2,574 nucleotides of DNA. It comes from Escherichia coli. Lineage in GTDB: Bacteria; Pseudomonadota; Gammaproteobacteria; Enterobacterales; Enterobacteriaceae. The notes under the pieces were generated by a model that saw only the letters and a program-made list of their open reading frames with translations, was not told the origin of the DNA and ran no database searches. Every line of letters begins with the position of its first letter. The stretch's first letter is position 1. Shown here one piece after another: positions 1,637 to 1,839 of the stretch. The stretch lies in NCBI RefSeq assembly GCF_003334315.1, contig NZ_QOWR01000109.1. One strand, written 5' to 3'. Position numbers and translations under genes: made by a program.

Positions 1637-1839
1637 ATAGGGTGATTATTTTTCCTTTATTGGTTCGATATTAAAAATTCTTCTTGTCGTTAAAGGGGAG
1701 TAAAATCTCCGCTCCCCGCTTCTCCTCCTTAAGTAATACTGTGTCATTTACCTCTTTTTTCCTTTGTTATGCATACATCTTGGAGTGTGCATAACATAGG
1801 GTAATTACAAAGGCGGCTTTAAATGCTGCCTTTTATTTT
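1637..1839 (+). ncRNA. Putative structured 5' leader or small RNA (about 200 nt) running from the predicted start site to the terminator hairpin
   Basis: Bounded by the promoter at 1602-1630 and the hairpin plus U-tract at 1809-1839. It contains a G-rich block AAAGGGGAG (1692-1700) that can pair with any of three CU-rich blocks (1706-1710, 1712-1717, 1721-1727), and an imperfect 10-bp inverted repeat (1767-1776 with 1785-1794). No ORF with a credible SD lies inside. I could not match it to any riboswitch class from memory. Confidence 0.3.

Follow-up and report, generated by a model that had tools for sequence, protein, structure and literature searches.

A predicted RNA with exposed anti-Shine-Dalgarno motifs at the replication/capsid border of a satellite-like island in Escherichia coli

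The locus and its genomic setting

The stretch analysed here, referred to as the window, comprises 2,574 nucleotides of Escherichia coli DNA (NCBI RefSeq assembly GCF_003334315.1, contig NZ_QOWR01000109.1) and contains the border between the replication and capsid modules of an integrated island that looks like a phage satellite. At this border lies an intergenic region in which a G-rich block resembling a Shine-Dalgarno (SD) sequence is followed by three CU-rich blocks (positions 1692–1728). These blocks would form the nearly invariant core of a predicted RNA of about 200 nucleotides (nt), for which our preferred, tentative reading is that of a base-pairing anti-SD regulatory RNA analogous to SviR of the Vibrio PLE satellites.

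The interior of the window matches E. coli chromosomes: at least 80% of the window is present in 303 of 5426 complete genomes, and its intergenic region in 307 of them (about 6%). Matches to phage and plasmid records are limited to the two ends, which are ends of insertion sequences (IS) of the IS3 family, and the possibility that the window is known phage or plasmid sequence was rejected for this reason. The window is an IS-disrupted copy of the island and corresponds to positions 12001–14416 of an intact copy (L001). At its left side an IS3 end (1 to about 92) truncates the gene of the replication initiator, which is why the open reading frame (ORF) at 62–397 contains only the C-terminus of that protein, and at its right side an IS2/ISEc36-like end (about 2497–2574) breaks the capsid gene five bases past its ATG at 2493. 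The RNA unit lying between the two IS ends is intact in this copy.

The intact island is about 12 kb long (about 7300–19700 in L001), has a low G+C content and lies beside a tRNA-Thr gene (thrW, downstream of proA); islands of this kind were also noted in L002 and L013–L024. Its gene order begins with two small genes, followed by the replication initiator (which has PHROG matches, and iterons upstream) and by genes coding for proteins of 92, 136 and 112 amino acids (aa). The long intergenic region separates these from the genes of a 70-aa protein, a 120-aa protein, the major capsid protein (MCP, PF03864) and a product of about 65 aa, after which come a 611-aa tape-measure-like protein, a 238-aa protein and the integrase. 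In the window the 70-aa and 120-aa genes are found on the + strand at 1902–2114 and 2111–2473; they are the first two late genes and precede the capsid gene, an order that is kept in all relatives.

The 238-aa protein is 63–64% identical to the tail-tube initiator of Justusliebigvirus and Phapecoctavirus, which are virulent E. coli myoviruses of about 147 kb, and the 611-aa protein is 31–36% identical to the tape-measure proteins of these phages. The gene order (decoration, capsid ... small protein, tape measure, initiator) mirrors that of phage PHB05, and neither a terminase nor a portal was seen among the island genes. Because of the homology of the tube initiator and tape measure, together with the gene order shared with PHB05, the island looks like a satellite of phi92-like phages, which it appears, judging from its sequence, to parasitise. 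In the literature searched, no paper was found that describes the island, that links satellites with Stephanstirmvirinae, or that contains the sequence of the RNA region.

Promoter, terminator and flanking repeats

The best promoter in the window is a sigma-70 promoter on the + strand (1602–1630), in which TTGACA and an extended -10 element (TG-n-TAATAT) are separated by a 17-nt spacer, with 10 of 12 positions matching the consensus in addition to the TG. This near-consensus promoter is retained in all relatives. The best terminator, on the same strand, is an intrinsic one at 1809–1840, formed by the stem AAAGGCGGC-UUUAAAU-GCUGCCUUU (1809–1833) and the tract UAUUUU, just upstream of the capsid operon. 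Together they bracket the G/CU blocks and delimit a predicted noncoding RNA (1637–1840, + strand), whose 5' end is inferred from the -10 hexamer and whose 3' end from the U-tract of the terminator. A strong promoter is thereby followed by a predicted terminated transcript of about 200 nt immediately 5' of the late genes, and these seem to depend on read-through, since no promoter was found in the window between the terminator and the first late gene. The initial annotation had called this region a leader, which is imprecise, as a strong terminator closes the unit 60 nt before the next gene. A coding explanation was rejected, both short ORFs over the region being frameshifted among near-identical variants.

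The RNA unit is flanked by two near-identical 17-bp palindromes of the form GCAAC-N6-GTTGT. The left copy (GCAACAAAAAAGTTGTA, 1578–1594) is found just upstream of the -35 hexamer, and the right copy (GCAACTTAAAAGTTGTA, 1849–1865), which is 88% identical to it, between the terminator and the SD sequence of the 70-aa gene. In the relatives, the sequence G(T/C)AAC-(A-rich N6)-GTT(A/G)Y separates the last terminator from the first late gene and frequently occurs upstream of the promoter too. The conserved half-sites and the fixed spacer suggest either an operator in the DNA or a hairpin whose loop is A-rich. In addition, a direct repeat (ATTATATAGGGTGATTA / ATAACATAGGGTAATTA) occurs at 1632–1648 and 1791–1807, i.e. 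at the 5' end of the RNA and just before the terminator, and according to the folding its two copies are able to pair, closing the RNA. Further downstream, a tandem AACAAGGT × 2 at 1878–1893 constitutes the SD region of the 70-aa gene and shows partial complementarity to UUACCUC (1748–1754), and a CU-rich tandem (TTCTCCTTC × 3) is located within the 70-aa coding sequence (2042–2068).

Folding and anatomy of the RNA

The whole 205-nt unit folds with a z-score of -4.8, which none of 200 shuffled sequences matched. The G block (AAAGGGGAGU, 1692–1701; all elements described here are on the + strand) provides the 5' arm of hairpin 1, in which GGGGAGU (1695–1701) pairs with GCUCCCC (1711–1717), the latter containing CU block 2. 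This hairpin (-12.2 kcal/mol) is found in both the minimum free energy and the centroid structures, and when considered alone has a z-score of -2.0, with 4 of 200 shuffles folding as well. Its 9-nt loop (AAAAUCUCC, 1702–1710) holds CU block 1 (UCUCC, 1706–1710), with an unpaired probability of 0.97; the corresponding value is 0.01 for CU block 2, which has GGAG as its partner. Hairpin 1 is followed by a single-stranded, pyrimidine-rich linker of about 47 nt (1718–1764), comprising CU block 3 (UCUCCUCC, 1721–1728), UUACCUC, UUUUUUCCUUU and also CCUCCUUA (1724–1731), a sequence identical to the 3'-terminal end of the 16S rRNA of E. coli. The CUCCUCCUUA motif of CU block 3 (CUCCUCC) is predicted to be single-stranded, with an unpaired probability of 0.84–0.87. 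Hairpin 2 (1765–1796) consists of UGUUAUGCAUAC and GUGUGCAUAACA around the loop AUCUUGGA and carries the only exposed GGAG (1782–1785). Near the 5' end there is a pyrimidine segment (UUAUUAUUUUUCCUUUAUU, 1644–1661), and the copies of a UUUUUCCUUU repeat are located at 1649–1661 and 1756–1768.

The initial annotation had read the G block as a strong ribosome-binding site (RBS) lacking a start codon, able to pair with any one of the three CU blocks in mutually exclusive hairpins. A direct reading of the sequence agrees with AAAGGGGAG at 1692–1700, with TCTCC at 1706–1710 and with CTCCCC at 1712–1717; CTCCTCC is present as well, but at 1722–1728 rather than at 1721–1727, the longer TCTCCTCC spanning 1721–1728. 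No ATG, GTG or TTG occurs in the 15 nt 3' of the G block (TAAAATCTCCGCTCC), and frameshifts between close variants disrupt both small ORFs that span the block, which leaves it as an SD look-alike without an ORF. It is indeed complementary to the CU blocks, which are anti-SD-like and lie inside the predicted promoter-to-terminator transcript. The idea of a balanced switch did not survive folding: the pairing with CUCCCC dominates, and the G block pairs with CUCCUCC only when CUCCCC is blocked, at a penalty of 3.8 kcal/mol. Hairpin 1 being dominant and the alternatives costly, the G block is therefore best described as a self-neutralised SD look-alike and not as an orphan RBS. The exposure of the CU blocks is likewise predicted for UCUCC and CUCCUCC, but not for CUCCCC, which is paired with the G block. 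The terminator survives every folding constraint tried, so that a thermodynamic, riboswitch-like switch between the G and CU pairings as a control of the terminator was rejected.

Several further identities were considered for the RNA. An intrinsic terminator consists of a GC-rich stem with a U-run directly behind it, and hairpin 1 with its CU tract does not have this form: it is not listed in the terminator scan, and its tail (GCUUCUCCUCCUU) has U at 6 of 13 positions. Searching the window and six related loci against Rfam (cmscan, E up to 1) gave no match to RsaE/RoxS or to any other family, and a Firmicutes origin of the RsaE type, which had been the comparison offered at the outset, was rejected because the sequence is from E. 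coli and has no Rfam hit. A tRNA, tmRNA or tRNA-like identity, prompted by GGUUCGAU and the UCGAAUC motifs, was dismissed with a negative ARAGORN result. The RNAs of type III toxin-antitoxin systems (ToxI-like) are recognised by tandem direct repeats of about 30–40 nt located 5' of an endoribonuclease gene. Only dispersed repeats of 13–17 nt, and no tandem repeat, are found in 1637–1840, and the proteins encoded downstream have no nuclease match, so this identity was discarded too.

Conservation among E. coli copies and relatives

Nucleotide diversity (pi) was determined for 15 distinct E. coli copies of the locus. The region 1692–1728 is its most conserved part, with a pi of 0.0036 and only one of 37 columns variable, the G block being invariant in all 15 variants. 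For comparison, pi is 0.009 for the spacer between terminator and gene (1841–1901), 0.0255 for the whole RNA (1637–1840), and 0.047–0.098 for the third codon positions of the four flanking genes, above the value for the RNA. The low diversity of 1692–1728 reflects purifying selection, and in the window-type copies the two unpaired blocks, CU1 and CU3, show the same invariance as the paired CU2. The variation seen consists of a CUC expansion just 3' of CU3, a variable linker length, a 17-nt insertion before the terminator, and a change in hairpin 2 (U.G to U-A at 1787) that preserves the pair. A degenerate pattern scan of IMG/VR for covariation in the window-type hairpin gave only identical copies and chance hits.

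Homologues of the capsid protein (37–78% identity) led to related loci in E. coli variants, Klebsiella, Enterobacter, Citrobacter, Cronobacter, Dryocola, Sodalis and Serratia, and a scan of species-representative genomes gave only four loci. In all relatives an intergenic region of 330–1000 nt is found at the same place between the early and late modules and in the same orientation. Each contains a near-consensus promoter, usually with an extended -10 element, and a start of the form TAT(A/T)GGG; a noncoding stretch follows, with one to three intrinsic terminators, and the predicted RNAs are 200–950 nt long.

The RNAs of about 600 nt from seven members (group A) share 120 consensus pairs, 40 of which have compensatory changes, and their many G.U pairs fix the + strand. 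One of their hairpins is GC-rich and covaries strongly, with GUCGUUCCGAAGG before it and (A)UCUCC after it. In the window the corresponding order is GUCGUUAAAGGGGAG, hairpin, GCUUCUCCUCC, and based on these similar flanks, hairpin 1 may be regarded as the minimal counterpart of the group A hairpin, a correspondence in architecture and short motifs. Where the window has the G/CU hairpin, group A and Klebsiella show a GC hairpin with UCUCC-rich tracts behind it, and a reading of the sequences of L011, L017 and L019 places there a GC hairpin followed by a true U-run. The group A profile gave no match outside group A in nhmmer, and the primary sequence cannot be aligned between RNA types. The locus is an unannotated, strongly conserved RNA family with covariation support, and it is absent from Rfam.

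Enrichment of the CUCC motif

Motifs were counted in 16 related RNAs (9263 nt) and compared with dinucleotide shuffles. CUCC was observed 72 times against an expectation of 33.6 ± 5.3 (z 7.3), UCUCC 32 times against 11.4 (z 6.4), and CCUCC 20 times against 8.5 (z 4.0). GGA is depleted (63 observed, 92 expected, z -4.0), and GGAGG does not occur at all (3.8 expected, z -1.9). An unbiased scan of 11 representatives gave CUCC and CCUC as the two most enriched 4-mers. The density of CUCC amounts to 6–17 per kb in the RNA, compared with 1–3.7 per kb elsewhere in the same elements, and CUCC positions are predicted to be unpaired at 0.63, compared with 0.36 for other positions.

The most enriched 5-mer in the 11 representative RNAs is UAACA (20 observed, 6.1 expected, z 6.2), along with UGUU, GUUGU and CGUUA. 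Inverted repeats of the type UGUUA...UAACA recur in the RNAs, as in hairpin 2 of the window and in UGUUAUUCGUAACA of group A. Sites of the UAACA type are located in the window at 1765–1769, 1792–1796 and 1885–1889, and TGTTA belongs to every extended -10 element.

Candidate pairing targets

Within the island, a segment at the 5' end of the RNA (+7 to +22) pairs at 15 of 16 positions with the initiation region of the MCP gene in L001 (z 3.5, ungapped scoring), the window copy differing by one base. From a reading of the sequences, the initiation regions of the rep gene and the 120-aa gene contain complements of the loop AAAAUCUCC, namely GGAGAUUUU and GGAGAUU, respectively, and the 92-aa gene is preceded by UAAGGAGG, a complement of CCUCCUUA. 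A purine repeat (AAAGGA × 5.5, 803–836) lies over the initiation region of the 136-aa gene and is complementary to both UUUUUCCUUU repeats. A specific target among the island's own genes was rejected, the MCP signal being modest and the test of cognate versus non-cognate pairs not significant.

Justusliebigvirus PHB05, a virulent myovirus, was examined as a candidate helper. The best matches in this phage are to three initiation regions: that of the tail protein gp146, with which CUCCUUAAGUAAUA pairs over 14 bp, that of the large terminase, with which CCGCUUCUCCUCCU pairs (UCUCCUCCU against AGGAGGAGA), and that of the portal, with which AAUCUCCGCU pairs. The summed pairing is above that of dinucleotide-shuffled RNA (z 2.1, p 0.02), and the initiation regions pair better than internal coding windows (936 vs 807). 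An RNA counterpart in the helper was also considered and rejected, as the CUCC-dense intergenic regions of PHB05 look, on reading, like tRNA arrays.

Other features of the island and of PHB05

In the island and its relatives the early operon begins with a second promoter, likewise of the extended -10 type (L001 about 11080–11150, L013 2070, L010 2810, L016 2322, L017 2378, L018 1274). The transcript from it starts with UAUUAG(A)GGGACAG, and in each element about 25 nt surrounding the -10 hexamer and the start site are common to both promoters. The sequence AGAGGGACA is identical to a part of the T7 A1 initial transcribed sequence. PHB05 (L065) has promoters of the form TTGACA-N15-TGTTAnAnT, the same form as those of the satellite, at 523, 943, 1611, 1752, 3064, 8046, 20240 and 34341, and several of these appear from their sequence context to drive tRNA arrays.

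An origin of replication at the RNA region was rejected, the iterons being located elsewhere (L001 about 9850–10000). Between the iterons and the early promoter lies a stretch of about 400 nt (L001 10060–10480) without annotated genes, in which GC-rich inverted repeats and repeated GTGTAATT motifs occur, and which could represent a further structured RNA, or else a site for packaging or replication. The window also contains an unannotated ORF of 38 aa on the + strand (734–850, MIVAMYWLLFFLTLETYFGVFSFKRKGKVNGKKKKQRC) with a good SD sequence, which overlaps the beginning of the 136-aa gene and whose place is taken in Klebsiella by a called gene of 41 aa (L013 3783–3908). The 38-aa product has a hydrophobic N-terminal part and a basic tail, and may be a small membrane peptide or toxin.

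Discussion

Of the known systems, SviR offers the closest parallel. It is a 210-nt small RNA of the Vibrio cholerae PLE satellites that has a promoter of its own, ends at an intrinsic terminator and lies between inverted repeats; by pairing it blocks ribosome-binding sites in satellite and helper mRNAs (bioRxiv 10.1101/2022.04.08.487710). Like SviR, the RNA of the window is intergenic in a satellite-like island of a virulent myovirus, is about 200 nt long, and has its own promoter, a Rho-independent terminator and flanking repeats. The two have no sequence or Rfam relationship, however, and differ in host, satellite family and helper. SviR is moreover induced by the helper, whereas the promoter in the window looks like a constitutive consensus sigma-70 promoter, and in place of two defined seeds there is here a generic recurring CUCC motif in RNAs of 200 to about 950 nt among relatives, with targets that are candidates. 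The RsaE/RoxS comparison retains some value as a likeness of design only: unpaired C/U-rich SD-complementary motifs are predicted in a loop (CU1) and in the linker between hairpins (CU3), with unpaired probabilities of 0.84–0.97, but the host is E. coli, Rfam gives no match, the motif is CUCC/CCUCC and not a CCCC run, and the RNA belongs to a mobile element.

Other phage and host RNAs share part of this design. The C4 antisense RNAs of Rfam (c4 of P1 and P7, CI of P4) are made from a constitutive promoter, and short segments of them pair with repeated complementary sites, including an RBS, in the same element. The RNA described here is similarly encoded by a phage or satellite behind a constitutive-type promoter, but it has no Rfam hit, no defined pairs of complementary sites were found in it, and it precedes capsid genes instead of replication or antirepressor genes. 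With CsrB/RsmZ it has in common a short motif repeated in exposed positions of a structured RNA and the depletion of the complementary motif, but the motif is CUCC and not GGA, its copies are fewer, and a binding protein is putative only.

Our preferred reading of the blocks, an anti-SD RNA acting in trans, would work as follows. The predicted RNA would be made from the very strong extended -10 sigma-70 promoter and end at the terminator before the capsid operon. Its G block would be neutralised by CUCCCC, with hairpin 1 presenting UCUCC in its loop, and the unstructured pyrimidine tract that follows would carry CUCCUCCUUA, a copy of the anti-Shine-Dalgarno end of 16S rRNA. The exposed CUCC motifs and the two UUUUUCCUUU segments could then pair with purine-rich ribosome-binding regions and lower translation, the probable targets being genes of the island itself or of the helper phage. 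A trans-acting seed had already been proposed initially, and this is still the best reading, on the basis of generic anti-SD complementarity.

A number of results weigh against it. Complementarity of 4–9 nt to SD sequences is generic, and no specific target stands out. The best single score with PHB05 is reached by 9% of shuffled RNAs (p 0.09), the RNAs do not pair significantly better with the initiation regions of their own element than with those of other family members (best for MCP, p 0.076), the z-scores from RNAduplex are mostly insignificant, with long spurious duplexes and no consistent signal, and no extended antisense match was found in 50,697 phage records. Treating the RNAs as one family relies on position, architecture and short motifs, since homology between the RNA types is undetectable. 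Finally, AGGG and AGGGG are enriched in the 11 representatives as well, so that part of the CUCC excess may only serve internal stems.

This last point, to which the enrichment of AAGGG can be added, leads to the alternative that the resemblance to anti-SD sequences is incidental, the G- and CU-runs being the strands of stems (G.U pairs included) in an RNA that functions elsewhere, e.g. through conserved loops or the DNA palindromes. One CU block of the window is fully paired with the G block, some CUCC motifs of group A pair with a preceding GGGG, and other loops of group A, such as UCGAAUCAC and UUCCCAUAG, are equally conserved. Yet most CUCC positions are predicted to be unpaired, their Watson-Crick partner GGAG shows no enrichment, with GGA being depleted, and the unpaired CU1 and CU3 share the invariance of CU2. 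We consider an incidental resemblance quite improbable. The same exposed motifs could be there for a protein: the RNA would then be a sponge or decoy for a host, helper or satellite protein recognising pyrimidine-rich RNA or the 16S 3' end, in the way that CsrB presents GGA to CsrA. Possible ligands are Rho, S1, Era or a nuclease directed at the anti-SD. In each RNA two to seven short CUCC motifs are dispersed, with a preference for unpaired positions, depletion is seen for the reverse motif GGA, a specific RNA target is missing, and the exact octamer of the 16S 3' end is found in the window, with CCUCCUUAA in a hairpin loop of L021, L024 and L043. A candidate protein was not identified, each RNA has few motifs in comparison with sponges of the CsrB type, and the motif positions are not conserved between RNA types. 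We consider a sponge slightly less probable than an incidental resemblance.

More serious is the alternative that the unit acts in cis as a gate for the capsid operon. Promoter, leader and one to three terminators would keep the late genes off unless a factor encoded by the helper or the satellite makes polymerase resistant to termination; the G/CU hairpin and the pyrimidine tract would be a first, weakened terminator or a pause element, and the RNA that accumulates a by-product, or a molecule with a second role. A precedent is the lambda PR'-6S RNA-tR' unit with Q, which gates the late genes and whose terminated RNA can be a regulator (StxS of Stx-phage). The strong promoter, the short terminated transcript and the late or structural genes come here in the same order, every relative has the unit precisely at the junction of the early and late modules, with its orientation unchanged, several relatives have two or three intrinsic terminators in series, and the apparent dependence of the late genes on read-through agrees with a gate. 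So do the hairpin with a true U-run in L011, L017 and L019 and the hairpin with UCUCC-rich tracts in group A and Klebsiella at the corresponding position. The TAT(A/T)GGG at the start of transcription is conserved in both promoters of the elements and is only suggestive; it resembles a -10-like element followed by GGG, as in lambda PR'. No antiterminator could be identified, however, the neighbouring proteins having no family matches and PHROGs and NCBIfam giving no Q-like protein, and neither a Q-binding element nor a proven pause site is at hand. No alternative structure competes with the terminator, hairpin 1 of the window was not called as one, the RNA is structured with covariation, and the candidate helper is a virulent myovirus and not a lambdoid phage with Q. 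A simple terminator cassette, furthermore, needs neither extensive covariation nor exposed CUCC motifs throughout the family. The gate is a possible, if doubtful, explanation in itself; it is nearly as plausible as the anti-SD RNA and compatible with a dual role.

A wider proposal, which we think unlikely to hold in full, would join these elements into one system. The islands would be an undescribed family of integrative satellites, of about 12 kb, of phi92-like (Stephanstirmvirinae) virulent myoviruses, encoding at the border of the replication and capsid modules a fast-evolving structured RNA of 200–950 nt. Its exposed 16S-like CUCC/CCUCCUUA motifs would make it a multi-site anti-SD device, silencing the morphogenesis genes of the helper (terminase, portal, tail), holding the capsid genes of the satellite off until infection, or both.

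Phages of the phi92-like type are under consideration for phage therapy, and the carriers of the island include Shiga toxin-producing E. coli (STEC) O26 and avian pathogenic E. coli (APEC) O1. If the RNA acts as an anti-SD regulator in the way preferred here, it would be the second regulatory RNA, next to SviR, that is known from a satellite, and the first one of E. coli. By damping the translation of structural genes of the helper or satellite it would affect phage yield and satellite transfer, and the multi-site anti-SD device would represent an RNA-based arm of the conflict between satellite and helper in E. coli.

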